DNA of 64,000 nucleotides from the NCBI GenBank assembly GCA_965218795.1, contig OZ244653.1:3648001-3712000 (forward strand), read 5' to 3'. Both the position numbers and the translations under genes were made by a program. This DNA is from a bacterium. GTDB lineage: Bacteria; UBA8248; JACPRG01; G963555815. The notes beneath the pieces are model-generated. The model was not told the DNA's origin. It saw only the letters and a program-made list of their open reading frames with translations, and searched no databases. This document shows, piece by piece, positions 5,753-56,480 of the stretch (position 1 is the first letter of the stretch; every line of letters starts with the position of its first letter).

Positions 5753-6676
5753 TTAAGGGATATCATCATCAAAATCTGGTTCAAAGTCATCTGCTGGGTC
5801 CACGGTTTCTTCGATAATATTTTCACCATACTTTTCGGCAAGAAATCGTTCCCTATATAAGTAGAAAGCAGCATCACAAATCTTGTTGGTGTAATAGGCA
5901 TTAAAACTGCCCCCCACTACTGCACCTGTCACAGGAACCACTTGGGCTAATTTAGCTTTAGTAAGACGTATGCCGAGCGAAGAAGCAATTGTTTTAATGA
6001 TTGTTACAAAAGAATGCTTCTCTAAATCTTGCCACGCCTTCTTTTTAGCAACATCTTTCGCAATCCTAACGAGTTGAGCCATTGCGACTTGCTTGGCAGC
6101 GTCATTTGGGCTTGATGCTAACCCCAAAATATTCAGGGCAAACAATCTTTCCTGTTGAGATGAAATATCAAATCCATAATAGGTAGCATATTCTCCAATT
6201 GCTCGCTGATTTAGTGTAATAAGAGCTACAATATCAGGAGGGATTCCTGGTAAACCAACAGACCCCGCCCCCGCCCCTTCGGCAGTTGCAAGGGTTTTGT
6301 ATTTTGCTGACAACCAACCACATACCCTGTCGGCATCTTCTAAATCCAATGTGAATATGTCGCTCGGTGCTTCGATGTGCTCAAAACCGGCTTTTTGATA
6401 TTGTTTGTATATTGCATCGGGGCGAACTGTCCATGCAGCCAAATCATTAAGCAAACCAACCAAGCCACCTATAGCTTTTTCAATTACCCAATTAACACCT
6501 GGCGCTTCTGTTATCAGGTCTCCCGCTTTTTTAAGAGGCCAATTAATAACTTCCATAGTTTTTCCGAACCAGCCAATTTGTGGATTTTTCCACTCATGGA
6601 TGCTTGAAATTGCTAATCTTTCGTATTCACTTGGTCCATTTTTTATGAGGTGGCTCCGGTTCTGAGATGGTCCCAC
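5753..6676 (-). CDS. EcsC family protein (AT-rich, probably acquired); true start uncertain
   Basis: EGAGAGSVGLPGIPPDI, YATYYGFD, KLAQVVPVTGAVVGGSFN, YLYRERFL; visibly AT-richer than flanks; annotated GTG lies inside an IS3-like end. Confidence 0.85.
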   Translation of the reverse strand: MGPSQNRSHLIKNGPSEYERLAISSIHEWKNPQIGWFGKTMEVINWPLKKAGDLITEAPGVNWVIEKAIGGLVGLLNDLAAWTVRPDAIYKQYQKAGFEHIEAPSDIFTLDLEDADRVCGWLSAKYKTLATAEGAGAGSVGLPGIPPDIVALITLNQRAIGEYATYYGFDISSQQERLFALNILGLASSPNDAAKQVAMAQLVRIAKDVAKKKAWQDLEKHSFVTIIKTIASSLGIRLTKAKLAQVVPVTGAVVGGSFNAYYTNKICDAAFYLYRERFLAEKYGENIIEETVDPADDFEPDFDDDIP

Positions 6677-6745
6677 TTTCTTGGACAGTCTGGCGGCTGA
6701 TGTTAAGGTGTATTTCGATTGTCGATCAAGCCGCCAGAATCTCTT
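6663..6745 (-). mobile_element. IS3-family right end remnant
   Basis: Minus strand reads ...EEILAA-TGA...CTTAACATCAGCCGCCAGACTGTCCAAGAAAGTGGGACCATCTCA, like an IS3 OrfB C-terminus plus a terminal repeat ending CA. Confidence 0.6.
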
Positions 6746-6833
6746 CGAAATCGATCTCCTGCATTCCAGGCTTGTAACGCGATAGGAATATTCTTTCGAT
6801 GATTGCGGAATAGGTTCCCTTGCGTTGGTTCAC
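6726..6833 (-). pseudogene. Truncated N-terminus of putative type II restriction endonuclease partner of the MTase
   Basis: GTG 4 nt after the MTase stop gives MNQRKGTYSAIIERIFLSRYKPGMQEIDFE then IS-like EILAA*; resembles from recall the YSxIIExIF..Y..G..E..FER start of endonucleases found beside such MTases. Confidence 0.55.
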
Positions 6834-6837
6834 AACC

Positions 6838-8190
6838 TTATTCTCCAGGCCAATGGAGGAGAACGACTTCCTCTCGAAGTTCCGACCTCGTTGCCGTTGC
6901 CCTTCTGGTTCGGAATAAGTCGATACCTGTCACGTCATAACCGAGGGACTCGGCAATGTCCGCCAATAGCCGCCCGGTCCGGATCATGACTCTGAAATAC
7001 GAGGCTTGATCGCCTGCAACATATGCAAGTTGAGCGCCGGGACGAAGTATCGAGCGGAGATCCGAAAGGTGCCGCATCATCCCTCCGAAATACAGCCTTG
7101 CGACTCTTCCATAAAGCCGTTCAAAGCCGGAGGTCTTCTTCAGTTCTGTCCGCCGGTCTTCGATGGTCTCCGCAAGCTGCTGTATCTCCTTGTGATCCGC
7201 GACGATCAGATCGTCCGTGTCATCTTGATATACGTTACGGGTGTTGGACCTGACCAAATGCTGTTTGAGTTCCCGCAACTCTTGCCTGTTTCTGATAAAG
7301 CCCAAAAGAACGGATTCGAGGCGAGTCGTCCTGGTGTAATCCTTCTCGTTCGGATAAGGAGGCGAAGTGATCACTGCATCAACAGAACGTGGAGGGAGGA
7401 TCTCCCCAAGGGTTCGCGCGTCTCCCTGATGAACGGCTGCTTCGGTTCTGTTACGGCAACTCGGTTTTTTCAGGTCTTCCGCCATGCTCTCAACCCCATG
7501 CAGCCAGGAGGAGAGTACAGGGGCATCGGTCTTCGGAGGTCCAACGCCGACTTCCGGCCCGAAACGCAGGTTGCCAATTCCAGAGACGAGCGCCCGCGCC
7601 AACGCCAACCGTTCGTGATCATGAAATCGATGGTCTTTGTTCTCTTCCAAGGTTTCAAGGAGAACCAATGACTTGTGCAGAGGCAAGGGGCTTATGGAAT
7701 TTTTCAAAAGAAGTTTTGAGGTTTCTTCCGGCAGGCGTCGAAGGCTGCTCTCTGAAACGGTTTCTTCTCCCCCTGAAAATAAAGGAAGGTCCCCTCCTTC
7801 ATGGATTCCTGCGTCCTTGAGCTTTTTCGAGGCGATTCGGGAAACCTTTTTCGCGTGATGGAGCAGGCCGGCAGGGTCAATGTCCCAGTTCACTTTGACC
7901 TTGGTGGCGAAACCGGCCATTGGATTCACTTCAACCCCGAAGCTCGGGATTCCATGCTTTTTGCACTCTACGAGGGTTGTCCCGGTTCCGCAGAAAGGAT
8001 CCAGAACGCGCATTTCCCGGTTTACGCCCAATCGGCTCAGGTATTGCCTGACAAGGTGTGGAGGAAACGCAAGAACGAATCGATACCAATCGTGAGCAGC
8101 GCGATCGTCACGCTTGACTTTATTGTCTTCACGCTTGGCGACGAAAACCTGCTCCTCTGCCGTTCTCACGGTGAAGAAAACCCCATCCAT
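6838..8190 (-). CDS. DNA amino-methyltransferase (probable m4C; motif I before motif IV)
   Basis: HDWYRF, VLDPFCGTGTT (SAM binding), ITSPPYPN (catalytic SPPY). Confidence 0.92.
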   Translation of the reverse strand: MDGVFFTVRTAEEQVFVAKREDNKVKRDDRAAHDWYRFVLAFPPHLVRQYLSRLGVNREMRVLDPFCGTGTTLVECKKHGIPSFGVEVNPMAGFATKVKVNWDIDPAGLLHHAKKVSRIASKKLKDAGIHEGGDLPLFSGGEETVSESSLRRLPEETSKLLLKNSISPLPLHKSLVLLETLEENKDHRFHDHERLALARALVSGIGNLRFGPEVGVGPPKTDAPVLSSWLHGVESMAEDLKKPSCRNRTEAAVHQGDARTLGEILPPRSVDAVITSPPYPNEKDYTRTTRLESVLLGFIRNRQELRELKQHLVRSNTRNVYQDDTDDLIVADHKEIQQLAETIEDRRTELKKTSGFERLYGRVARLYFGGMMRHLSDLRSILRPGAQLAYVAGDQASYFRVMIRTGRLLADIAESLGYDVTGIDLFRTRRATATRSELREEVVLLHWPGE

Positions 8191-12321: not shown

Positions 12322-12362
12322 GGGGGGACATTTTGAAAACCGTCCCCCCTCGAAAACTTTCG
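12322..12362. repeat. Palindromic GGGGGACATTTTGAAAA..GTCCCCC repeat family copy
   Basis: Same motif at 17851-17900, 32388-32432, 32597-32641, 34366-34560, 35284-35345, 37136-37186. Confidence 0.75.
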
Positions 12363-21170: not shown

Positions 21171-21788
21171 TCATGCCGGTCGGACCATCTCGAAAATCTC
21201 CTGGCACCGTGTGTAGTAGTTCTTCGAGAGCCGGGCGATCGGCCGGAGGTTGTGAATGTCGATGGTTCCGTCCCTGTAAAGGTCGTCCCGGACGTGGAAC
21301 ATGACCACGCGGCCGATGATGAGGTTGTGACTGCCCAAATCGACCGCCTGATGAACCTCGCACTCCAGGGATCCCGGAGATTCGGCCACGCGGGGCGGTT
21401 TTACGATTTTGCTGGGCGCCGTCGTCAGGCCGGCCTGCTCCAACTCGTCGACCTCGGGCTCATACGTGCCGGCGCAGATGTTGATCGCATCGCCGATGTC
21501 CTCTGTCACGATGTTCACGACGAACTCACCCGTCTCCTCCACGTTCCGCAGCGTGTCCTTCTTGACCTTTCCGCCCGAGTATCCTGGTTTCTCCGCCCCC
21601 TGGTATGTGGGTGAGAACATGACCAACGGCGGATCATTGCCGATGGCGTTGAAGTAGGCGAAGGGGGCCGCGTTCAAAGCACCGTCCACGCTGAGCGTCG
21701 TCACGAATGCGATCGGACGGGGAACCACCAGCCCGCTCAGCAACTGGTAATTCTGCCGTCCCGTATGTCCAATGGGGTCGATTTCCAC
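21171..21788 (-). CDS. Flavin reductase family protein
   Basis: VVPRPIAFVTT, NAAPFAYF, KDTLRNVEETGEFVVN, PPRVAESP..LEC. Confidence 0.92.
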   Translation of the reverse strand: MEIDPIGHTGRQNYQLLSGLVVPRPIAFVTTLSVDGALNAAPFAYFNAIGNDPPLVMFSPTYQGAEKPGYSGGKVKKDTLRNVEETGEFVVNIVTEDIGDAINICAGTYEPEVDELEQAGLTTAPSKIVKPPRVAESPGSLECEVHQAVDLGSHNLIIGRVVMFHVRDDLYRDGTIDIHNLRPIARLSKNYYTRCQEIFEMVRPA

Positions 21789-22130
21789 GTTGAATCCTCG
21801 TTCTCAGAAAGGACTCCGCGCCATCTTCAAGACCTCGGAGCCGTACGGTTGGGGTTTCGGAAAAACCCTCTTGGCCTTGATCGACGCACATTCATCCATT
21901 GCGCGTCCCGGATGGTGAATGCGAACGGTCCAATGGTTTATTGCAATCGAGGCTAGCAAAGGGGGTCGAATCGTGTCAACGAAAACCGTCAATCCGCGGG
22001 ATGGTTCCCGGGAGCAGGTCCGGTTCGAAAATCGCAGGCGTTCGGACCGAGTTTCGGTTGACACCACCGATGGTCTTGCTCACACTGAACAAAGGAAGAA
22101 TTCACTTCATCACTCACGATCGAGAGAACG

Positions 22131-22388
22131 ATGGAATTGGACCCCCGGGTTCCCGGTAAAGAAAGCAAGGCAGCGGCCGAGAAACTGAGTCGAATTCTGA
22201 ACGATGATGTTCCTGGTGTGGCGACGGACATTCGATACCACTTCGCGAAGTCCGGCTTTCAATTGACGGCGCGTCCGTCAAGCGAGAGAGCGGATTCGCT
22301 GTTCCTGTCGTTTGCTCAAATCCAAGAGCTCAACGACAACGAGATCGGAAACCTGATCCGCTCGGCCTTCCAGGGCGGAGACGTCTAA
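22131..22388 (+). CDS. Hypothetical protein (85 aa)
   Basis: ATG with GAGAG upstream, protein-like composition. Confidence 0.5.
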   Translation: MELDPRVPGKESKAAAEKLSRILNDDVPGVATDIRYHFAKSGFQLTARPSSERADSLFLSFAQIQELNDNEIGNLIRSAFQGGDV

Positions 22389-22518
22389 AGGTCGCTGCGG
22401 TCCCCTTCCGGCATCTATTGGGAAAATTTTCACCCCAGCGCAGCCTAGATGCCAGTGGAAGAGGTGCATAGGTGTATTTGTATTGAGTACGGTAATCACC
22501 TGACAGTCTGACCGTCGT

Positions 22519-22662
22519 CGCGCGACCTTCGCCTTAAAGGCCGATGAATGGTGACGGCGCTTTCTTCGGGTCATCTTCCCCTCCTTCTCCTCGGAGAACT
22601 GTACGGCAGAAGATACCACTTATCAGGCCCCCTTCTCTGTCCAACTACTAAGGTCCAGCTCT
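22519..22662 (-). mobile_element. IS3-family left end plus orfA stub
   Basis: AGAGCTGGACCTTAGTAGTTGGACAG terminal-repeat-like sequence; AAGGAGG + ATG 22574 gives MTRRKRRHHSSAFKAKVA then breaks off. Confidence 0.75.
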
Positions 22663-22684
22663 GCCCACCTCACAATTCCTTTTT

Positions 22685-23315
22685 TTAGACATCCGAACCG
22701 GCTACCTGTTCTTTTGTTAATTCTCCATATTTTTTGGAGAAAGACGATGTTATAAAGTTTTCGTCATAGTTCCAAATGCTACCATCCGCTAATCGTGCCT
22801 GCCGAACATATATTCCGATCACTCCATATTTCTTGAACTTAAATAGATAGGCTGGACTGTAATCCCATTGCATGCCGTTGGTTGGTGGATCCATAGTGAT
22901 CGCCGTAAGGCCACCGAGATACTCTTTGAATGCGTCATAGACGATCGCCGTACACCTTTGAAATTTACACCAAAATTTACTGCAACTACGTTCTTGCCAC
23001 TTGCATCTATAGTGATCGTTAGCGTCTCCCTCGCTAACCGTTTAAGTCTGTCTTTTTCACGGTCTCCAAGATATCGAAACAGACTGTTTCGGTATGCATC
23101 AGCGAGTGCAGCAGTTTCCCTTGGAATGTGGCGTCCTGTTACATTTACAATACGAACGGGTGCATCCTTTTCGTTAATGTAAAATGCCTCGTTATGGTAA
23201 ACGGTGCCCTTTATATCCTTGTAGATAGTAACATCCTCGATCTTCGCTTCTGCGCCTGTGCGACAGAAGAAATCAAGACTGCCAGCGTAGCAGAAACGAA
23301 ACCAAACACGCTCAT
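22685..23315 (-). pseudogene. Frameshifted secreted hypothetical protein (AT-rich)
   Basis: Signal peptide MSVFGFVSATLAVLISSVAQA, then protein-like frames AKIEDVTIYKDIKG... and AIVYDAFKEYLGG...DGSIWNYDENF joined by two frameshifts. Confidence 0.5.
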
Positions 23316-23325
23316 AGCGCCAATC

Positions 23326-23664
23326 CTATTTCGTGAAATTTTCGTTGGCCGTCCAAACAACGACAGGCGCGCCTCCATCTGGTGGATGTACGTAAATCTG
23401 TGACTTTCCCCACATACTATAATCTTTAAGTGTGACCCTAAGTCCGCTCCTCAGGCGAATACATACTCCGCTCTTGTAGAGGCTGATCATCCATGATGCG
23501 TCCCTCGTCTTATGAGCATGAATCGCAGCATCCATATATTCGTCATAAGCCTTCTCGGTGAAACAAGCAGCCCCACCGGCCCTATTGGTTGTGTAGTAGT
23601 CTTGCGCCGTAGCACTGCAGAGCATATTTAGTGAGACGAGGGCACAGGCTACGATGATGCGCAT
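23326..23664 (-). CDS. Secreted hypothetical protein (112 aa)
   Basis: Signal peptide MRIIVACALVSLNMLCSATA; G-rich SD-like upstream; AT-rich island. Confidence 0.65.
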   Translation of the reverse strand: MRIIVACALVSLNMLCSATAQDYYTTNRAGGAACFTEKAYDEYMDAAIHAHKTRDASWMISLYKSGVCIRLRSGLRVTLKDYSMWGKSQIYVHPPDGGAPVVVWTANENFTK

Positions 23665-23679
23665 GAAGAACCTACCCCC

Positions 23680-23865
23680 CCGTCTTTTCTTCTCGATGTA
23701 CTAGCACGTTCCCAAGAGTGTCGAGCGCACCTTCAACCCGTGCCATTCGCTCTCGCAGCGAAGCGACGTCTCTGCGCAACTCACGAAGACCGGGCGCGAT
23801 TGCCGTCCAAAGCCAATGCCCGTGCCGACAATGATACAGATAATAGCTATAGTATCTGCGTCCAT
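23680..23865 (-). pseudogene. Frameshifted small TM plus coiled-coil protein
   Basis: AAAGGAG + MDADTIAIICIIVGTGIG, then a shifted frame AIAPGLRELRRDVASLRERMARVEGALDTL. Confidence 0.45.
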
Positions 23866-23959
23866 CGAACTCTCTCCTTTAGGTGGACTAAATAATAGAC
23901 TAGGGGACGCCCTGTCGTCAACCTGCCCTCACGCTTGCTACGATGGCTGCAAACCCCAT

Positions 23960-24059
23960 CCTGATTATGCACGAAGCTCAGGTTGGGGGCACGGGATTCC
24001 CGGGATCGCCGCCTTCCAGGAAACCGGCGGCCACAACCTGAGCTTCGTGCGTAATCAGG
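23960..24059. mobile_element. 100-bp MITE with 26-bp terminal inverted repeats
   Basis: CCTGATTATGCACGAAGCTCAGGTTG ... CAACCTGAGCTTCGTGCGTAATCAGG (1 mismatch); flanks AACCCCAT / AACCCCAA. Confidence 0.8.
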
Positions 24060-24207
24060 AACCCCAATTTCGTCAATCGAGACTGGACAATCTAAGCTGG
24101 ATGGCTATCGCGACCCGCTCAGCTGCCTTTTCGCTCTATGATCACAACCGAAAACCCTCAACCCACTTGGCCCTAAACCAGGGGGAAGGTCACGCAGAAA
24201 CGTTATG

Positions 24208-25122
24208 TTACCCGCAATCTGTCATCTCTAAGATTTCATCCAGAGAATATCCACAATCCAATAGTTCGTTTGCCATCTTTCCCTTTTTTATGTCACCTAA
24301 AGATACTCTCTCTAGGGAAAAATCCAAGTCATACATCGGCACTTGCCAAAATCGCAACAGTGTCTGTACATGACGGTCTGTTGCATTGTCTCTCACTAGA
24401 CCTTCCTCAAACAATTTTCTTACATTCTCTCGCAAAAGAACGTCCCATCGGGGATACTCTTGTGCGTTAGACTGGCTAATCTTTGTAAAGAAATATTTCC
24501 CCCAAATATTTGATGTGATCGACACCCCTCTGGGCGTGAAAAAGCCAAGACAACACATAGCATCTACAACTTCAAGAGCGGGCATAAAGCTTTCTAGAGA
24601 ATCGATATTCAACGGCGCATGCCAGTAGGCTATTCCATCATCGGTAGATGCAACGTCTGCGTACAGGTTAGCTTCTCGCTCCCATAGCTCCCACTGTGGG
24701 ACAATGGGAGCTCCCGGACCGTCAATCCGAAGTGATTTTCGCATAAAGTCAGCATATTCCCTCTGCAATTCAACGACATCATACCCGGTCACCGAAGCCG
24801 CTTCCGCATAGATCAAACGCACATGGTGGTTGTAGAACCACTTGCACATCTTCGGAAGACATTCATTGAGAAGGGAATCAGGACAACGCACAACGTCCAT
24901 AAGGATAAGTATTTTTGCTGCCTCTTCCTTAGAAAATCCGTTCAAAACACATGCCTCGCGTGGACTGTCTCTTATCTGGAGCGCTGCGTTTCTATAGTTT
25001 CTTGCGCTGGACAGGATGATTGGAAATCCCTCAGCAAGGAAGGATAACTGCTTCTTTCGGGACATTTGGCACAATGATTTCAATTTTCTGAATCCTGTTG
25101 AAGTCATTGAACTCTCTTTCAC
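24208..25122 (-). CDS. Putative AbiV-family (HEPN-like) abortive infection protein
   Basis: LAEGFPIILSSA...SKEEAAKILILMDVVRCP...WFYNHHVRLIYAEA...REANLYAD resembles from recall proteins annotated as AbiV family; AT-rich. Confidence 0.6.
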   Translation of the reverse strand: MKESSMTSTGFRKLKSLCQMSRKKQLSFLAEGFPIILSSARNYRNAALQIRDSPREACVLNGFSKEEAAKILILMDVVRCPDSLLNECLPKMCKWFYNHHVRLIYAEAASVTGYDVVELQREYADFMRKSLRIDGPGAPIVPQWELWEREANLYADVASTDDGIAYWHAPLNIDSLESFMPALEVVDAMCCLGFFTPRGVSITSNIWGKYFFTKISQSNAQEYPRWDVLLRENVRKLFEEGLVRDNATDRHVQTLLRFWQVPMYDLDFSLERVSLGDIKKGKMANELLDCGYSLDEILEMTDCG

Positions 25123-25335
25123 TTATCCTGGTGCCTTCGGGTCGCTTTCATTCTAACCCCCAGAGGGCCGCGTAAATTCTCATAGAGCGTGAACAGGTAC
25201 TCGATACGTTCTCGCTCGCTGACGAATTCAGCACGTCGATAAAGGCGGTCCACGGCGCGGTCGAGAGCTTGGTGCGCACGGCGCAGGTTCGGCGGCATGA
25301 GGTCGAGGTCGTAGAGGCCGGCCAGCGTCGCATCC
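25119..25335 (-). pseudogene. C-terminal fragment of MmeI-like (type IIL) restriction-modification enzyme
   Basis: DATLAGLYDLDLMPPNLRRAHQALDRAVDRLY...ERERIEYLFTLYENL. Confidence 0.8.
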
Positions 25336-25465
25336 GGGCGTACGGCCCGAGCGAACCAGCTCAACCATCTGGCGCCGGTATTCCGGCGCGTAGGGTGAAT
25401 GAGTTTTCGCCATCTGAACACCTCCTGCGCACAGTCTGAAGGTGTCCACTAAAACGGTCAACTCG
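25334..25465 (-). mobile_element. IS3-family left end plus orfA stub
   Basis: GAGTTGACCGTTTTAGTGGACACC repeat; AGGAGG + ATG 25413 gives MAKTHSPYAPEYRRQMVELVRSGRTP, joined to the MmeI fragment. Confidence 0.8.
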
Positions 25466-25637
25466 ACACGCAACGGGGCGGGAGACGTTTCCCCACATGC
25501 GCGGCGGACGCTGCCGCTCAAGCGCCGCTCGGGCTAACGGCCGGATACACAACGGCTTGTATCGCCCGAGGGCTTGAGCGGAACGGAAGCACGATGCAGA
25601 CGCCAGTCGGCGTTTCACTCTCACCCCACGCAGCCCG

Positions 25638-26927
25638 CTAGCGATTTGGTCCGGAACCGCCGCCGGAGGCCAGAGGGAAGGATCGGGATTTTGTGAACCA
25701 AAACCGTTTTTGGAAGATCCCAAGGGGGAGCGCCAAATCCGTCTGGGTGGGACCGACGATTGAACCCTGCTGTATCTGATCCAATAGTTTCTGAACGTTT
25801 GGAAGGATGTCCCTTCGGTACCGGAAGGCCTCTTTGGCGAAGAGCACATAGGTTGAAACCCATTGCGATGTCGTAGATAGCCTTCCCGGTATCCCATATC
25901 GCCGGCCTTCCTCAATTCGCTTGCTGAGATCAGCGCCGCGTGCAGGGAACAGAACCTGGGCCTGGCCTTCGCTGTTGATGCGCAAGAGCAGGACGTATAT
26001 CGACTGCGTGGGGAGAAAGCTGATCAGATAGGATGCGGAGGCGTTGACGCTTGCCCCGTCCAGACCCTTGCGGCGGTGTCCATCGGCCTCTATCACCTCG
26101 TACCAGACGCTCAACGGGCTCCAGGTCCAATCCCTCGGCACAACGGGGAGGATATTTCGCTTCCGGGACGGGATGCGGCCGCTCACCTCTGTGTGCTGGA
26201 GAGAACCCAGAGGCAGCGTCACCCGGGCCCTGGCAACGGACAAGGTTCCCGTTGCCAGGGCCGGCGCCATCCGGAGGAGCTGGGCGCTGATGACCACGCG
26301 GTTTCCGAGGACTTGATAGCGGCCTCCTACAAGGGTATCCACTCCGCCGAGGGCGGCAGCGCGAATGCTGAAGTCGGGGCTGAGGGGTCTCATCCCAATC
26401 CGGTCTGGAACCCCCCTCATCGCCAAATCCTCTTCCCAAGCAACCATGAGATTTCTCGGGAATACCGGGCGGCCGCTGATTTTTCCGAGACTTTTCACCA
26501 GCCCGTTCTCCAATCGCTGAGAGAGCAAAGTTCTGTAGCCACTGGTGTCCAGCACACTGCCGACGGCGATTCGGCTCACCGGGACGATCAGGCTTCGGTA
26601 CCGCCCCAGTTTGAATTTTCCCCCTTCACTCCATAGGGTCTGCACAAGCTTGGCTGCCGCCGTTTCCGCGTCCTTCGCTATTCCGGGAATTTCAATCCAT
26701 TTTTCCTCATCCGGCGTTGGCTTGATGGCACAGGCGCATATGGTGAGACACAACGTCATCCAGCAGGAGGCCCTTCGTAATCTTCGGCTTCCGGTTGTCA
26801 AGGACCTCTCGGGCCGGAAAAATCGGCGGAACGAAGAAATGGAAAGTCGTTTTCTACCTTGTTTCAGCATTTTTCCCGTCCGGAACTCTTGGCGAAAATC
26901 CGCCGACTCCGCATGGGCGCTCGACAA
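25638..26927 (-). CDS. Putative lipoprotein, FlgO/CsgG-like domain plus DUF4384-like domain; start uncertain
   Basis: Lipobox-like TICAC; GVDTLVGGRYQVLGNRVVISAQLL; YVLLLRINSEGQAQVLFP. Confidence 0.6.
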   Translation of the reverse strand: MSSAHAESADFRQEFRTGKMLKQGRKRLSISSFRRFFRPERSLTTGSRRLRRASCWMTLCLTICACAIKPTPDEEKWIEIPGIAKDAETAAAKLVQTLWSEGGKFKLGRYRSLIVPVSRIAVGSVLDTSGYRTLLSQRLENGLVKSLGKISGRPVFPRNLMVAWEEDLAMRGVPDRIGMRPLSPDFSIRAAALGGVDTLVGGRYQVLGNRVVISAQLLRMAPALATGTLSVARARVTLPLGSLQHTEVSGRIPSRKRNILPVVPRDWTWSPLSVWYEVIEADGHRRKGLDGASVNASASYLISFLPTQSIYVLLLRINSEGQAQVLFPARGADLSKRIEEGRRYGIPGRLSTTSQWVSTYVLFAKEAFRYRRDILPNVQKLLDQIQQGSIVGPTQTDLALPLGIFQKRFWFTKSRSFPLASGGGSGPNR

Positions 26928-27830: not shown

Positions 27831-28765
27831 ATGGCCGTTCTGAACTGCCTGATGGATTGCGACCCGGGCGTTGACGACGCCCTGGCGCTGATACTGGCTC
27901 TCGGGCATCCGATACCCGTTTACTCGCAATTACGACCGTCGCGGGGAATGCGCCGCTTGAGGCCTGCACCCGAAACGCCCTCCGGGTGTTGGAGGCTGTG
28001 TCCCCTCAGCGGGCGCCTCCGGTGCACGAAGGGGCTGCCGCGCCCATCGACGGAAACGCTCGGGAGCGGGCCCTCCACGTTCACGGGGAGGATGGTTTGG
28101 GGGATCTCGCTCCCACGGTCTATCCGGAGCCGGCGGGCGGACCGGTTTCGCCGCCAGCGCCCAAGGCCATCCTGCAATACGCCGATGATTTTCCGGGCGA
28201 GGTGACATTGGTCGCTACCGGCCCGCTGACCAATCTGGCCCTGGCCGCGCGGGAAAAACCCGAGCGGTTACACCTCTTCCGGGAAATCGTCGTCATGGGC
28301 GGGGCCGTTCGTGTGCCTGGGAACGTGACGCCCCACGCCGAGTTCAACATCTGGTCCGACCCCGAGGCGTTGGCCATCCTTCTGGCATTGGGCGTTTCCC
28401 CTCTTCTCGTCCCTCTGGACGTGACGATGCAGGTCGTGTTGACGCCGGACCACCTCGAGCGTCTTCCGTTGCAAAACCCTCGAGCGCGTCTCGTCTTGGA
28501 CTGCACCCGAGGATACATGGCCTTTCACAACAAGACGCGGGGAGTAGACGGTTGTTTTCTGCATGATCCCCTGGCGCTCGGTGTCGCCATCGACTCCTCT
28601 TTCGTTGAAATAGAAGAAGTGTATCTGGACGTCACCACGAGCGAATCGGAGGTGAGGGGAAAAACCTTCGAAACGTCACCCGACCGGGGCCACCCCGCTC
28701 GGATATGTACCCGGGTGGATGCAGATCGATTTCTCGATTTCTTTTTGGACTGGATTTCCGTCTAG
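27831..28765 (+). pseudogene. Nucleoside hydrolase (IU-NH/Rih family) with one frameshift near 27910
   Basis: DCDPGVDDALA in frame of 27831; LLAITTVAGN, TGPLTNLA, AEFNIWSDPEA, LHDPLA in frame of 27986. Confidence 0.88.
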
Positions 28766-33053: not shown

Positions 33054-34214
33054 TTACCCGACCGGCTTTCTCGGCAACGAAGCGGTTCCCGCCATGCACA
33101 CAAAGACAACCACCAACACCAGGACCCAGCTCGCCGTGAAGCTGTCGGTCAGGTCATGAACCAGACCCATCAGGAACGGGCCGACAAAGGCGCCCGCATA
33201 TCCCACCAGGAAGTTCGCCCCGGCGACGCTCCCGACTTTGTGAGGCTCCACGTAATCCAGCGGCAACGCGAAGTTCATCGCGAAAACGCCCCCTGAAGCG
33301 AGCCCCATAATCACGAAATTCGTTTGGGGCGCTTTCAAGGGAAAGAAAATCATCCCCAGCAACGTCAATAGAAGAATGAAGTTCGAGAAAATCAGGGTTC
33401 CCCTTCGACCGCCAACCCGGTCGGATAGGTAAGGGAGACCCAGGCTGGAAGGCAAGGCCATCAGGATGAAGAGGGTCAGGAGCAAAGCGCCCCCCTCCAG
33501 ATTCATACCGAGCTCATGATAGTAGGTCGGCGTCCATGTGATCACGCAATAAAAGAAGATATTGTGCGTCAGGAAGAGCGTGTTCAGCTTCCAGACGGTC
33601 TTGTCCCGCCAAATCTCAGCCAGTTGAGGGGCCCTTCCGCCGTGCGCGGGAGGGGTTGGACGGGCCAAAATCACCCATCCCAGCAGGGTGAAAAACGCAA
33701 CGCCGCCCCACACCATGAACGTTCCCCGCCAAGACCCCGACCACTGGAGGAGATAGGGCACGGTCAGCCATGAGCCCAACGTGGCGCCGATGACAAAGCC
33801 GGTGGTGTTGATTCCCGTCGCCGTTCCCGGCATGTCGGAAAAATGGTCTTTGACCATCCGTGTCAGGCCCGGAGTCGCGATACCCACCCCGAAGCCCAAC
33901 AGGGCGGTCCAGATCACCAGGGACAAGTACCCGCTCACCATCGCCCGGAACAGACCTCCCACCAAAATGGCGAGCATTCCCAGGGTGAGGGCGCGCTTCA
34001 CGCCTTTGGTGTCCGCAAGCCATCCCCCCGGCAGGCCGAAAATCGCCATCATCACGGTGGGGATGCTGAAAAGGAATCCCGCTTCCGCGTAGCTGAGACC
34101 CAGGTCGGTTTTAATGAGGGGCAGGATCGGGGAGACTCCTAAAACGCTCGCGCGCATATTCAAGGCCACGCACCACGTCAAGGCAAGAAGGAACCAACGA
34201 TTCTGTGTCGGCAA
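33054..34214 (-). CDS. MFS transporter (CynX/NimT-like)
   Basis: ALNMRAS, GWLADTKG, LSDRVGGRR, GPFLMGLVHDLTDSF; likely TTG start at 34214 with GAGGAAG upstream. Confidence 0.9.
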   Translation of the reverse strand: MPTQNRWFLLALTWCVALNMRASVLGVSPILPLIKTDLGLSYAEAGFLFSIPTVMMAIFGLPGGWLADTKGVKRALTLGMLAILVGGLFRAMVSGYLSLVIWTALLGFGVGIATPGLTRMVKDHFSDMPGTATGINTTGFVIGATLGSWLTVPYLLQWSGSWRGTFMVWGGVAFFTLLGWVILARPTPPAHGGRAPQLAEIWRDKTVWKLNTLFLTHNIFFYCVITWTPTYYHELGMNLEGGALLLTLFILMALPSSLGLPYLSDRVGGRRGTLIFSNFILLLTLLGMIFFPLKAPQTNFVIMGLASGGVFAMNFALPLDYVEPHKVGSVAGANFLVGYAGAFVGPFLMGLVHDLTDSFTASWVLVLVVVFVCMAGTASLPRKPVG

Positions 34215-34357
34215 GGGTTTCGACTTCCTCGTTGATGACGGATTGATTTGTGAACGAAGAACAGGAAGATCCAACGTAAATATTATCGCACACGCCGAAG
34301 CAAAGGATCTTATCGATTGATGCGAGGAGGAAGTCTCGGTCTGCTGGTCTGCCAATT

Positions 34358-34625
34358 GAGGAAATAGAAAACTTCTGGAGGGGCATTTTGGAAATTGCTC
34401 CTCCATGCCTCCTGACGCCGTCCTTCGGGATCGTACGTAACACGCACGATCCCGAAGAGGAAAGTTGTTGCGATGGGGCGCGAAGCGCGCCATCGCGAAA
34501 TGGAAGTTTTCGAAGGGGGGTTTTAGGGGGGAGCAGTTTTCAAAATGTTCCCCCCTGAAAGTCTCTGAAACTGTCTATTCTCACCACTCCGGTAATAGAT
34601 TGATCGGCATGACGATTGCGAAGGA
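34358..34625 (+). repeat. Direct copy of the 35275-35672 block including the glcD promoter and first codons
   Basis: GAGGAAATAGAAAACTTCTGGAGGGGCATTTTG, GAGGAAAGTTGTTGCGATGGGGCGCGAAGCGCGCCATCGCGA and CAAAATGTTCCCCCCTGAAAGTCTCTGAAA..TCACCACT..TAGATTGAT..CATG.CGATTGCG present in both. Confidence 0.9.
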
Positions 34626-34670
34626 CCTGAATGAGAGAATATATTCTTGTCTTCCTACGAGGAGGTACGC

Positions 34671-35258
34671 ATGAACGATGAAACCGATCCCAGGAGTTCC
34701 AGTGGAGGCAGAGGTGAGTTGATCGCCTATGTTGTGGCGGACTGTAAGGCGAGCGATACGCTGGTCCACGAAGTCGTCGGATATCAGGAGATCATGAAGA
34801 ACGAGGATGAGTATCCGGGACAAAGCGCGGGCCAAACCAAACCCGAGATGATCGGCGCAAACCAGACATTCTACGTCGACGAGCCGCCGATCCTCGGCGG
34901 GGAAGGCAAATATCCCCAGCCGCTCACCTACGTGGCCGGAGGCATCGGTGCCTGACTGCTCACCCAGGTGAAGCGGTTCGCTTCGATGATGAAGATCAAG
35001 CTGAACGCCGCAAGCGTCCGGGTGGAAATGGATTACTTTCGCAGCGGGTCGGTCCTCCGGGGAGACATGACAAGCGGCTGCCGGGAGGTCCGCACGTTTT
35101 TCGAAATTGAATCCGACGCGCCCAAAGATGAGCTACGCCAACTCGTCCGAAACGCCAAAGGCGGATGCTTCGCCGAAAACATGGTCCAGACAGCAGTCTC
35201 GCTCAAAAGCGTCATCACTGTGAACGGAGAAAAACTGGATCCTTCCGAGCTCAAGTGA
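34671..35258 (+). CDS. OsmC/Ohr-family protein with in-frame UGA (probable selenocysteine), 195 aa
   Basis: GAGGAGG SD; VDEPPILGGEGKYPQPLTYVAGGIGA-UGA(34953-34955)-LLTQ continues in frame to AKGGCFAE; the UGA sits at the first catalytic Cys position. Confidence 0.88.
34956..34992 (+). promoter_or_regulatory. Candidate bacterial SECIS element
   Basis: Perfect stem GAAGCG(34970-75)-GTT-CGCTTC(34979-84); G-led apical loop about 20 nt after the UGA. Confidence 0.6.
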
Positions 35259-35274
35259 TCGTACAACTTTACAG

Positions 35275-35612
35275 GAGGAAATAGAAAACTTCTGGAGGGG
35301 CATTTTGAAAATTGCCCCTCCAGGCCTCCCGCAAAAACTTTCGACGGCCGAGCGAATGTTCGGCCTGCTCGCGGCGGCGTCTTGCAGCTATTCGCCAGTC
35401 CTGCCGCGCGGAACATGAACAATGAGGAAAGTTGTTGCGATGGGGCGCGAAGCGCGCCATCGCGAGAGGACACATCGTGTCAGCTTGATGCACTTGCATG
35501 CCTGCTCATCAAGCAATCGCATGGACGTGCGCCACAGAGGCCATGAGTCTGAGAAAGATTCTCATCCGCGAAATGGCCGGCACGCAAGCGCCCAAAATGT
35601 TCCCCCCTGAAA
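35275..35612. repeat. Long modular repeat copy
   Basis: Direct match to parts of 34358-34625; inverted match to 32273-32641. Confidence 0.9.
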
Positions 35613-35622
35613 GTCTCTGAAA

Positions 35623-35651
35623 TTGTCTACTCACCACTTCGGTGATAGATT
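35623..35651 (+). promoter_or_regulatory. Sigma70-like promoter, probably giving a leaderless glcD mRNA
   Basis: TTGTCT-17 bp-TAGATT, ATG 7 nt downstream, no SD. Confidence 0.5.
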
Positions 35652-35658
35652 GATTCCC

Positions 35659-37053
35659 ATGGCGATTGCGGAAGTCTTACTCGACCGGTTGCGGGAGATG
35701 TTCCCGGCGGAACGGGTCCTCGAGGCCATCGAGGAGCGGATCACCTACGCGCGGGACGGCACCCAGCGGGCCGAATCCGTCCCGGACGTCGTCGTGCGCG
35801 CCGTCTCGGCCGACGAGGTGGAGGCGATCGTCCGCTTCGCCCACGAAGAAGAAATCCCCATCACGCCGCGCGGCGCGGGGACCAGTACCACCGGCGGGGC
35901 TATCCCCGTCCGGCAGGGGATCCTCCTCGACCTCACGGCCATGAACAGGATCAAGGAGATCGACGAGGCCAACCTCCTGGCGGTGGTTCAACCGGGGTTG
36001 ATCACGGCCCGGTTTCAGGCCGAGGTGGAGAAGCGGGGGCTCTTTTACCCGCCGGACCCGGCCAGCAGGTCGGCGTGCACCTTGGGCGGTAACGCAGCCA
36101 TGTGCGCGGGCGGGCCCCGAGGGGTGAAGTACGGCGTCACGAAGGACTACGTCATCGGCCTGGAAGCCGTCACGCCGGCCTTCGGCCGGATTCGCACGGG
36201 CGTGCGGACGGTGAAGGGCGTAGTCGGCTACGACCTCACGAAGCTCCTGGTGGGCTCGGAGGGAACGCTGGGCGTCATCACGGAGATGACCCTGCGGCTC
36301 ATCCCGAAGCCCGAGGCCACGGGTCTGATGCTGGCGGCCTTTCCCGGCCTCCTGGCCGCTTCGGAGACGGTGTCGCGGATCATCGCCGCCCGCATCATTC
36401 CCTCCACACTGGAGTTTCTCGACAAGCATTGCATCCGGGCGGCGGAGCACCACCTCCACGCGGGTCTGCCGCTGGACGCCGAAGCCCTGCTCCTCATCCA
36501 GGTGGACGGCCCGAAGGAGTCCATCGCGCCCCAGCTTGAGCGCATTCGGGAAATCTGCCGCGGGAGGGGGGCCGCCCCGATCCGCGTTGCGGAAACCCCC
36601 GAGGAGGCGGCCGCGTTGATGACGGTCCGGACGAGCCTGGCGAACGCGATCCTCCACATTCAGCCGACGAAGATCAACGAGGATATCGCGGTGCCGCGCT
36701 CGCGTATTCCGGAGATGATCCAGCGGCTCCAGGAAATCGGCGACCGAAGGGGCCACTTGATCATCACGTTCGGACACGCCGGAGACGGCAACCTGCACGT
36801 GAACGTGATGACGGATGAACGAGACGCGGAGAAAATGGCCAGCGCCATGGAGGCCGTGCGGGATATCTTTGAATCAACGGTCGAGATGGACGGCACGCTG
36901 TCGGGCGAGCACGGGATCGGGATCACGAAGTCGGAGTACCTGCCCCTGGAACAACCCCCCCACCTTATCGAGCTTCAAAAACAAATCAAGGCGGTCTTCG
37001 ATCCCCATCACATCATGAACCCCGGCAAGATCTTCTGGCCGGTAAAGCATTGA
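35659..37053 (+). CDS. glcD: FAD-linked oxidase, glycolate oxidase subunit GlcD/D-lactate dehydrogenase family
   Basis: PRGAGTSTTGG, YPPDPAS, KYGVTKDYV, GSEGTLG, GHAGDGNLH, SGEHGIG, MNPGK. Confidence 0.88.
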   Translation: MAIAEVLLDRLREMFPAERVLEAIEERITYARDGTQRAESVPDVVVRAVSADEVEAIVRFAHEEEIPITPRGAGTSTTGGAIPVRQGILLDLTAMNRIKEIDEANLLAVVQPGLITARFQAEVEKRGLFYPPDPASRSACTLGGNAAMCAGGPRGVKYGVTKDYVIGLEAVTPAFGRIRTGVRTVKGVVGYDLTKLLVGSEGTLGVITEMTLRLIPKPEATGLMLAAFPGLLAASETVSRIIAARIIPSTLEFLDKHCIRAAEHHLHAGLPLDAEALLLIQVDGPKESIAPQLERIREICRGRGAAPIRVAETPEEAAALMTVRTSLANAILHIQPTKINEDIAVPRSRIPEMIQRLQEIGDRRGHLIITFGHAGDGNLHVNVMTDERDAEKMASAMEAVRDIFESTVEMDGTLSGEHGIGITKSEYLPLEQPPHLIELQKQIKAVFDPHHIMNPGKIFWPVKH

Positions 37054-52702: not shown

Positions 52703-53537
52703 CAGAAAAACTCGTCCGCGTCCTCAAGCATAAGGCGCGCTCGTTTTCGCGCCATGGTATTGGCGAGGGTTTCGGCGGGGAGGATACCGGCCGGCGTATC
52801 CGTCACCTTGCGCAACAGCCTCTCGTATTCCGCCCGGTTCTGAGCCGGAACGGCATAATAGCGGGCGTAGAATACCCAATTCATGAGGAACCTTCCCCCC
52901 GAAATCTCGACCGCCCGGTCAAAGTGCCGTTGAGCCGCGGCGACGTCTCCGCCCGCGAGCTTCGGCCTGCCTCCGAAATACGAGCCGAGGAACACGTGGG
53001 CTCCGCCGTAGAAGTAGGATTCCTCGACGGCCACGACGCGCTCCATTATTGCGGCCACGCGGGGAGTGGATTGGTTCAGGTTGATCCAGCCGGCCCAATT
53101 GTAGGCCGTCCAGAACAGGGCGGGTTGAACCCCCGAAGGCGGAGCAGCCTGAGGCCGTAATCGCGCTCCCGGAGATAGAGCTTTCCGGCCCGCTTCCGGT
53201 CGCCTCCCTCGGCGAAAGCCAATGCGTATCCGCCGAAGCCCCTGGCCGCCAGCAGCAAGAGTCCCCGGTGATCCGGATCGGATTTCAACAACCCTTCGAG
53301 AAGCTTGAGATTGGAGGCCGCCTCCGATTCCGCGAGGATGAGGTCGTCCTCTTCATTGAATGCGGCAAAGGCATCCTGGACGACTTCCGCGGTGGCGCGC
53401 ACGGCGATCTGCTTCAGCGTGCATCCGGAGATTGCCAGGATGATCCCCAGCAGGGGGAGCCAAAACCGGAACGAAGACCGTGGTGAAGAGCCGGTTCCCC
53501 GTCCCCAGGGGAATGGGTTTTTTGAAACGTTCCGCAC
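52702..53537 (-). pseudogene. TRAP TatT-component lipoprotein, frameshifted near 53125
   Basis: ISGC lipobox, EEDDLILA..NLKLLEGL, YALAF; second frame PALFWTAYNWAG...YFYGGAH...GGD....RHF..A...N..AR.RA..L. Confidence 0.8.
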
Positions 53538-55811: not shown

Positions 55812-56480
55812 TTGCCCGCCATCGACTATGAGGGCTTGGGGTTCCGCTCCGGCCTGGAGGTCCATTATCAGCCGCTCACCTCCCGGAAGCTGTTTTGCCG
55901 TTGTCCGGCAGGCCGGTATTCTCCCAACTTCGACGCGGAGATACGCCGTCACATGCGCCCCACGCTTTCGGAGTTGGGGGAATATGACGGCACGGCCCTT
56001 GATGGAGTTCAAGACCCGGAAAGAGGTGGTTGACCAAAATCGCAACGACACGGTGTGCACCCGCGAGATGGACGACACGTCGCCCTTCCCGCCCGATCCC
56101 CAGGCCATTGATATCGTCTTGGAGATGAAACTCCTGTTGGATTGTAGCATTGTGGGCGCGGTCCACGTCACCCGCAAGCAGTACCTGGACGGAAGTATCC
56201 CGACGGGTTTCCAAAGAACGGCCATCATTGGGGTGAGCGGGACGATTCATCTCGCGGAGTGGAAGATCTCCATCATACAGCTGAGTATGAAAGAGGATTC
56301 CTGCCGGGAGGTGAAGGACGAAGGGCACTGGATTGCCTTTCGTACCGACCGCCTGGGAATGCCCTTGGTCGAAGTGGCCGAGGTCGGCCGCCGAATCGGC
56401 GGAATCCTCCGTTCCACCGGAAGGGCCCGCAGGGGACTCGGCTCGTCAACGTGAGCATCCGGGGCGCCCCCCGCGTTTCG
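55812..56480 (+). pseudogene. gatE: Fragmented Glu-tRNA(Gln) amidotransferase subunit E (archaeal-type GatE)
   Basis: IDYEGLGFRSGLEVH, KLFCRCP, RPTLSELGEYDGTAL, frameshift, EMDDT.PF, RKQYLDGSIPTGFQRT, EDSCR, DRLGMPLVE, RSTGRARRGLG, frameshift, VNVSIRG.PRV. Confidence 0.85.

Follow-up and report, generated by a model that had tools for sequence, protein, structure and literature searches.

An OsmC-like gene with an in-frame UGA and a conserved SECIS-like hairpin is predicted to encode a selenoprotein of the UxxT family

The 64,000-nucleotide stretch of bacterial DNA analysed here (the window) very probably contains, at positions 34671-35258 of the forward strand, a single gene for an OsmC-fold selenoprotein of 195 residues, which belongs to the published UxxT family represented by the NCBIfam model NF041052. 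The family is not new, having been described in 2005 and having since received its curated model. An OsmC-like protein is among the 15 prokaryotic selenoprotein families presented as new in the Sargasso Sea study (Zhang, Fomenko & Gladyshev 2005; PMC1088965), whose relevant passages define the family as COG1765, with the motif UXXT, three Sargasso sequences and a predicted SECIS, and whose Table 1 labels COG1765 'predicted redox protein' and not Ohr or OsmC proper. The corresponding entry in a 2026 review (PMC13188914) gives the OsmC-like protein as PF02566, UxxT. The residues U95-L-L-T98 of the window protein fit this published redox motif. The initial annotation of this DNA, which was made from the sequence alone, had presented the gene as a hidden selenoprotein, and this was overstated in that the family had already appeared in PMC1088965 and NF041052 is a curated model.

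In the list of open reading frames (ORFs) the gene appears as two entries, 34647..34955 (+, 102 aa) and 34968..35258 (+, 96 aa), which share a common frame and are separated solely by the TGA at 34953-34955 and the four sense codons CTG CTC ACC CAG. Translation from the ATG at 34671 with this TGA read as U gives 195 residues, including the stretches ...VDEPPILGGEGKYPQPLTYVAGGIGA-U-LLTQ... and ...NAKGGCFAEN..., and the peptide directly before U-LLTQ in the read-through product is DEPPILGGEGKYPQPLTYVAGGIGA. Both the arrangement of the two ORFs in one frame and the read-through, with its U-LLTQ and a second Cys in GGCFAE, had been noted in the initial annotation, and they are borne out by the ORF list together with the sequence and by the translation, respectively. 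The elements of the gene are the following.

34660..34665, forward strand: Shine-Dalgarno-like AGGAGG, 5 nt before the ATG at 34671 (direct sequence reading).
34671..35258, forward strand: coding sequence of the OsmC-like selenoprotein, 195 residues (translation, Pfam OsmC, NF041052 and alignment with the homologous locus L001).
34953..34955, forward strand: in-frame TGA, codon 95, predicted to be read as selenocysteine (Sec) in the motif U-L-L-T (TGA or Cys in this column of the homologues).
34970..34984, forward strand: SECIS-like hairpin, stem 34970-34975/34979-34984, loop GUU at 34976-34978 (covariation; 14-nt spacer after the UGA).
35166..35168, forward strand: TGC for Cys166, the putative resolving cysteine, in a G-C-F/Y-A-E motif (invariant in the 38-sequence alignment A4).
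35256-35258, forward strand: TGA, the true stop of the selenoprotein coding sequence (translation).

Two profile models run across the in-frame TGA. Pfam PF02566 (OsmC) matches with 52.7 bits (5.9e-14, gathering threshold 27.5) and aligns residues 77-179 with positions 1-98 of the 100 in the profile, while NF041052 (OsmC_like_Se, 'OsmC-related (seleno)protein') matches with 144.4 bits (E 2.1e-42, cut-off 95) and aligns residues 64-186 with profile positions 22-144 of 144. The other way of reading the ORF list is that 34647-34955 and 34968-35258 are two separate small genes, and database entries such as P0006 are indeed annotated in this manner, but a single OsmC domain and NF041052 both span the TGA, the homologues that carry Cys are single proteins of 171-199 aa, and neither half-ORF makes a complete OsmC fold in the AlphaFold model considered below, such that this reading is given next to no credence. 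The entry P0006, a 'hypothetical protein' of Nitrospinaceae, extends from just past one TGA to just short of the next in a tandem gene pair, and hence shows how ORF callers fragment genes of this type. The expectation that standard annotation would miss the enzyme therefore holds for plain ORF callers, which split such genes as in P0006; it does not hold for a pipeline that uses NF041052, which should name the gene. Besides P0006, the loci L013, L018 and L036 also have two OsmC-like selenoprotein genes in tandem, and a TGA and a hairpin are present in both members of each pair.

Homologous loci were collected by scanning contigs with a C-terminal motif that leaves the Sec/Cys column out. The scan gave 115 stretches, of which 108 were confirmed, and the best 80 loci were kept. 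The records of these best 80 loci carry the labels Nitrospinota/Nitrospinaceae, Tectomicrobia, Binatia, Dehalococcoidia/SAR202 and Burkholderiales/betaproteobacterium. A local tblastn search over the 80 loci yielded 83 matches that cover column 95, where the codon is TGA in 81 of the 83 and TGT in the other two (L006 and L007, both labelled Binatia). Of five relatives obtained by a protein search, four (P0002-P0005) are full-length and have Cys at column 95. A tblastn comparison of homologues had been proposed with the initial annotation as the way to find TGA or Cys in this column, and both were found. The L001 protein is 77% identical to the window protein across residues 1-195, and no paralogue is present in the 64-kb window, where tblastn with the window protein matches its own gene only. 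Conservation extends well past the TGA, since 10 of the 15 invariant columns of the 38-sequence protein alignment A4 lie after it (L96, L97, G126, S127, G131, R160, A162, C166, E169 and G186).

Within the window the TGA codon otherwise has its usual meaning. It is the stop of 18 of the 35 Pfam-supported genes, including those for alanyl-tRNA synthetase (AlaRS) and for the GlcD-like oxidase that follows the selenoprotein gene, which indicates that the standard code is in use and that the recoding is local. From the comparison of sequences, the predicted reading of the in-frame UGA as Sec is strongly supported. Homologues, profile models and fold agree in describing the locus as a single OsmC-fold gene in which a Sec-type UGA stands in the place of the first conserved Cys.

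Downstream of the UGA lies the perfect GAAGCG-GTT-CGCTTC hairpin that had been reported with its loop about 20 nt past this codon; it was found as described, and its loop begins 21 nt past the last base of the TGA. By itself the hairpin gives a marginal thermodynamic signal. As a 26-nt piece it folds with -7.8 kcal/mol (z = -1.9), which is equalled by 9 of 200 shuffled sequences, and when 61 nt are folded, another helix has the lowest energy (z = -1.07). No SECIS family was found with Rfam over the whole window at gathering thresholds, nor over 34900-35060 at E up to 10, where the matches were chance ones to snoRNA and miRNA families alone.

Although marginal alone, the hairpin becomes significant on comparison with its relatives, for which the window sequence and the 81 TGA-bearing homologues were combined into a set of 82 sequences (72 distinct). 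The 45 nt from the TGA onwards are free of gaps across this set, with the hairpin at columns 18-32 counted from the T of the TGA, and the loop positions G24 and U25 are invariant in all 82 sequences even though they are third and first codon positions. The six pairs from 18-32 to 23-27 are formed in 92.8% of cells, compared with 72.9 ± 1.4 in shuffles, the covariation score is 0.440 versus 0.127, and none of 500 shuffles matches any of these measures. Compensatory changes occur at five of the six pairs, such as G-C/U-A at 18-32 and A-U/C-G/G-C at 20-30, and the inner four pairs were recovered independently by RNAalifold. Controls in which the register was slid are 16-59% paired. In the two TGT forms (L006 and L007), only one and three of the six pairs are kept, as read by eye. 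Judged by this comparison, the hairpin shows the behaviour expected of a SECIS.

The SECIS of Escherichia coli fdhF is a hairpin within the coding sequence, placed 3′ of the UGA at a short and constant spacing, and has a conserved G and U in its apical loop. The window hairpin is like this type in that it also lies in the coding sequence, at a fixed short distance from the UGA and with a G and a U in the loop. It is unlike it in having a stem of 6 bp and a loop of 3 nt (5 if the closing G-C pair opens), in showing no evident bulged U and in matching no Rfam model. Compared with the OsmC-like selenoprotein family itself nothing essential differs, as the window gene shares with it a profile score above the cut-off, the U-x-x-T motif, a second conserved Cys and, according to the description in PMC1088965, a small SECIS hairpin right after the UGA with a G in the apical loop. 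The window copy has a 60-residue N-terminal extension, which is also found in L001, L002 and the Binatia forms and is missing from the shorter Dehalococcoidia forms, and it lies beside a glcD-like gene, the leader of which is duplicated.

These results also bear on two ways in which the UGA might be explained other than by Sec. One is that the locus is a pseudogene, an OsmC-like gene with a nonsense mutation next to which the hairpin is coincidental. There is indeed a single in-frame stop, the hairpin alone is not significant, and Sec machinery is missing from the window, where ARAGORN detects 0 tRNAs over the 64 kb, and thus no tRNA-Sec, and a Pfam scan of the 112 ORFs of at least 150 aa gave no SelA, SelB or SelD. 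A decayed gene is, however, difficult to reconcile with the presence of TGA in all but two of the 83 homologous matches, whose records bear at least five lineage labels, with strong conservation past the TGA and with covariation of the hairpin, and it is considered extremely unlikely. The other is that UGA is read as Trp, Gly or Cys, either through a reassigned code or by near-cognate suppression. UGA has been reassigned in some bacterial lineages, which provides a precedent, but TGA ends about half of the window's Pfam-supported genes, those for AlaRS and the GlcD-like oxidase included, the alternative residue in the homologues is always Cys, which is the signature of Sec, and plain reassignment needs no covarying stem-loop at a fixed distance. 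Such a reading is very unlikely.

With Sec as the preferred reading, the UGA at codon 95 (34953-34955) would be decoded as selenocysteine with the hairpin at 34970-34984, 14 nt past the UGA and with a G-U apical loop, acting as a bacterial SECIS, through which SelB bearing Sec-tRNA(Sec) would be brought to a ribosome that has paused at this codon. The terminal UGA at 35256-35258, which has no such element, would lead to termination. A second selenoprotein was also looked for in the window, and no domain was found to run across a TGA in the 54 frames scanned out of 166 TGA-bridged frames, the 54 having been picked by hand because they adjoin a truncated domain match or fall in or next to regions where no gene had been confirmed.

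Some other genes of the window appear incomplete. The TRAP-transporter T-component (TAtT) domain at 52705-53537 on the reverse strand is split over two frames, which match profile positions 1-86 and 117-263, and this points to a frameshift or to an error in the sequence. In the region 27831-28765 on the forward strand, an ORF for an inosine-uridine nucleoside hydrolase (27986-28765) matches its Pfam profile from position 54 on, and a different frame may encode the N-terminal portion. The 208-aa ORF at 55828-56451 on the forward strand matches positions 38-150 of the 277 of GatB_N only, TGA read-through adds no match, and it is a putative stand-alone GatB-like fragment. The GC content of the window is ~0.60 and falls to 0.50-0.52 at 22000-26000, where the ORFs of at least 150 aa have no Pfam match and where 21788-23816 has no ORF of at least 120 aa, and to 0.495 at 6000-8000, where a DNA methylase is present. 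Both of these low-GC stretches may be foreign DNA.

The fold of the window protein was modelled with AlphaFold from the alignment, with a mean pLDDT of 84.5. A Foldseek search of the PDB with this model placed the OsmC-like structures 2opl (E 8.6e-11) and 3cje (E 5.4e-9) at the top, followed by OsmC and Ohr structures. In a profile search against the PDB, the Sec column pairs with Cys in 3cje, 2opl, 9wo1, 2onf and 1vla, and Cys166 pairs with Cys in 3cje and 2onf, while 2opl has no second Cys. In the model U95 lies inside the helix 84-106, and C166 lies between the helices 152-165 and 167-173. The two-Cys layout that had been proposed for this protein is thus recovered, with U95 in a long helix and C166 near the C-terminal helices of the model, and both columns are invariant.

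The best matches in both sequence and structure are GSU2788 (2opl) and Jann_2040 (3cje), with profile E values of 1.8e-13 and 1.1e-15, respectively. Both have Cys where the window protein has Sec, and 2opl in addition has an N-terminal extension in common with it, over 173 aligned columns; both are structural-genomics entries with names that carry no function. The Ohr proteins (PDB 1n2f, 1zb9 and 6ecy) have the same fold (Foldseek E 1.8e-5 to 7.5e-4) and the same two-Cys layout with the first Cys on a long helix, but the window protein differs from them in having Sec in place of Cys, in an identity of 13-20%, in an N-terminal beta extension and in failing the Ohr equivalog model NF052637 of NCBIfam, with 26.5 bits where 240 would be needed. 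OsmC sensu stricto (E. coli OsmC 1qwi and Thermotoga maritima TM0919 1vla) again has the fold of the window protein and shares the DEP..GG...P.P stretch before the first Cys, with the Sec column corresponding to the Cys of 1vla, but identity is 9-15% and the profile match to 1vla spans the first half only.

In Ohr and OsmC it is the first Cys that reacts with the peroxide, and the second has the resolving role. By analogy, Sec95 on the long helix 84-106 would be the peroxidatic residue that attacks the hydroperoxide, the resulting selenenic acid would be resolved by Cys166 to give a selenenylsulfide, and an external thiol reductant would regenerate the enzyme, as in Ohr and OsmC. On the basis of homology, the chances lean somewhat towards the window protein functioning as a hydroperoxide reductase. 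The term OsmC/Ohr-family peroxidase used in the initial annotation is in this respect half right, as Pfam and Foldseek confirm the OsmC fold, the Ohr model rejects the protein, and the peroxidase part comes from homology. No assay of a Sec-containing OsmC-like protein is reported in the titles and abstracts found by a literature search.

A different role is tentatively possible, in which the protein is a true selenoprotein and no hydroperoxide reductase, and Sec95 and Cys166 serve in another redox or chalcogen-handling reaction, such as that of a selenenylsulfide/disulfide oxidoreductase or of a sulfur or selenium carrier. The label that PMC1088965 gives to COG1765 in its Table 1 and the failure of the Ohr model both point in this direction, whereas the protein agrees with Ohr and OsmC structures in its fold and in the location of both Cys positions. 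Additional evidence on this question comes from the genes nearby, and the features around the window gene are as follows.

33054-34493, reverse strand: MFS transporter, the neighbour on the upstream side.
34358..34620, forward strand: upstream copy of a mosaic intergenic repeat, in which REP-like palindromes and a copy of the 5′ end of the glcD-like gene are present (sequence comparison).
34609..34674, forward strand: 21-codon upstream ORF, MTIAKDL..., derived from the duplicated glcD-like start; its TGA overlaps the ATG of the selenoprotein gene (ATGA).
35275..35670, forward strand: downstream copy of the mosaic repeat, between the selenoprotein and glcD-like genes and extending into the glcD-like start (sequence comparison).
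35623/35659-37053, forward strand: GlcD-like FAD oxidase (449 bits versus a GlcD cut-off of 568).

Neighbours were surveyed by taking the longest flanking ORF on each side in the best 80 loci, with 146 of 154 picks scanned. No conserved operon partner or reductant gene is universal across the 80 loci, where the neighbours are clade-specific, namely an AIRS-like protein in 13 of 80, an NHL-repeat protein in 13 of 80 and the GlcD-like protein in L001 and L002. The AIRS/AIRS_C protein is encoded by the next gene, ~100-350 nt downstream, in L024, L025, L030, L032, L034, L037, L039-L044 and L076, all of one clade. Assignment of this neighbour as SelD was considered and no firm call could be made, since the eight proteins tested score 85.9-95.6 against a cut-off of 125 and have similar scores for HypE and ThiL; for the same eight, HypE gives 101-110 against a cut-off of 251.6, and ThiL is also below its cut-off. 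The AIRS-like neighbour is predicted to be an unclassified SelD/HypE-like enzyme beside a selenoprotein.

This resemblance to SelD, HypE and ThiL, even with scores below every cut-off, would favour a role in redox or chalcogen chemistry other than hydroperoxide reduction. The AIRS neighbour is, however, absent from the window, L001 and L002, which have the GlcD-like oxidase instead, and the 13 AIRS loci may reflect one ancestral arrangement. A further proposal, that the family may be no peroxidase and may act as a Sec-based chalcogen-handling protein or redox partner, is regarded as improbable. As part of this improbable proposal, the compact SECIS, whose position is kept base for base across records with five lineage labels, would fit a horizontally mobile unit of gene plus SECIS. 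Hydroperoxide reduction is kept as the preferred function of the window protein.

In L001 and L002, the two loci closest to the window gene, the GlcD-like gene follows the selenoprotein gene after a short spacer, with 88% and 82% identity to that of the window. In these two loci the spacer is much shorter than in the window and has no repeat blocks. In the window the two copies of the mosaic direct repeat share blocks of 55 nt (95% identity), 42 nt (100%), 40 nt (95%) and 41 nt (85%). The end of the downstream copy is the native start of the glcD-like gene, which is common to L001, and the upstream copy carries a diverged duplicate of this start (ATGACGATTGCG). A recent insertion of the selenoprotein gene between the repeats was considered and rejected, since the order of OsmC-like selenoprotein gene and glcD-like gene is kept in L001 and L002 and the glcD-proximal end of the repeat is ancestral. 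The REP-like palindrome GGGG(A)CATTTTGAAAA..GTCCCC is itself dispersed in the window, at 12324, 17875, 32390, 32616, 34377, 34530, 35296 and 37161, with 11 strand-matches where 0.04 would be expected by chance, and the sites that were checked are intergenic. The 21-codon ORF is a possible leader peptide or a possible means of translational coupling, and, within the improbable proposal above, the duplicated glcD-like leader together with this ORF could couple expression of the selenoprotein to that of the flavin oxidase.

The nearest named relatives of the window AlaRS are from 'Nitrospinota bacterium' MAGs, with 76-77% identity. A 2026 database paper (PMC13326102) lists the MAG FO_M_Nitrospinota_01 with 54 selenoprotein genes. 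Loci L010, L012 and L036 come from this MAG, which places the OsmC-like selenoprotein family in Sec-rich lineages and, for the use of Sec by the window's organism that the initial annotation had proposed, amounts to indirect support.

For annotation, these results mean that the locus is to be called one 195-residue selenoprotein and not two hypothetical ORFs. For the OsmC-like selenoprotein family, the set of 82 sequences, in which the spacer is always 14 nt and the G-U of the loop never varies, provides a clean, covariation-supported candidate SECIS, and as no Rfam family detects this element, the 82-sequence alignment could seed a covariance model. For the source organism, a relative of the Nitrospinota-labelled MAGs, the presence of the gene predicts that machinery for Sec insertion is encoded in its genome.
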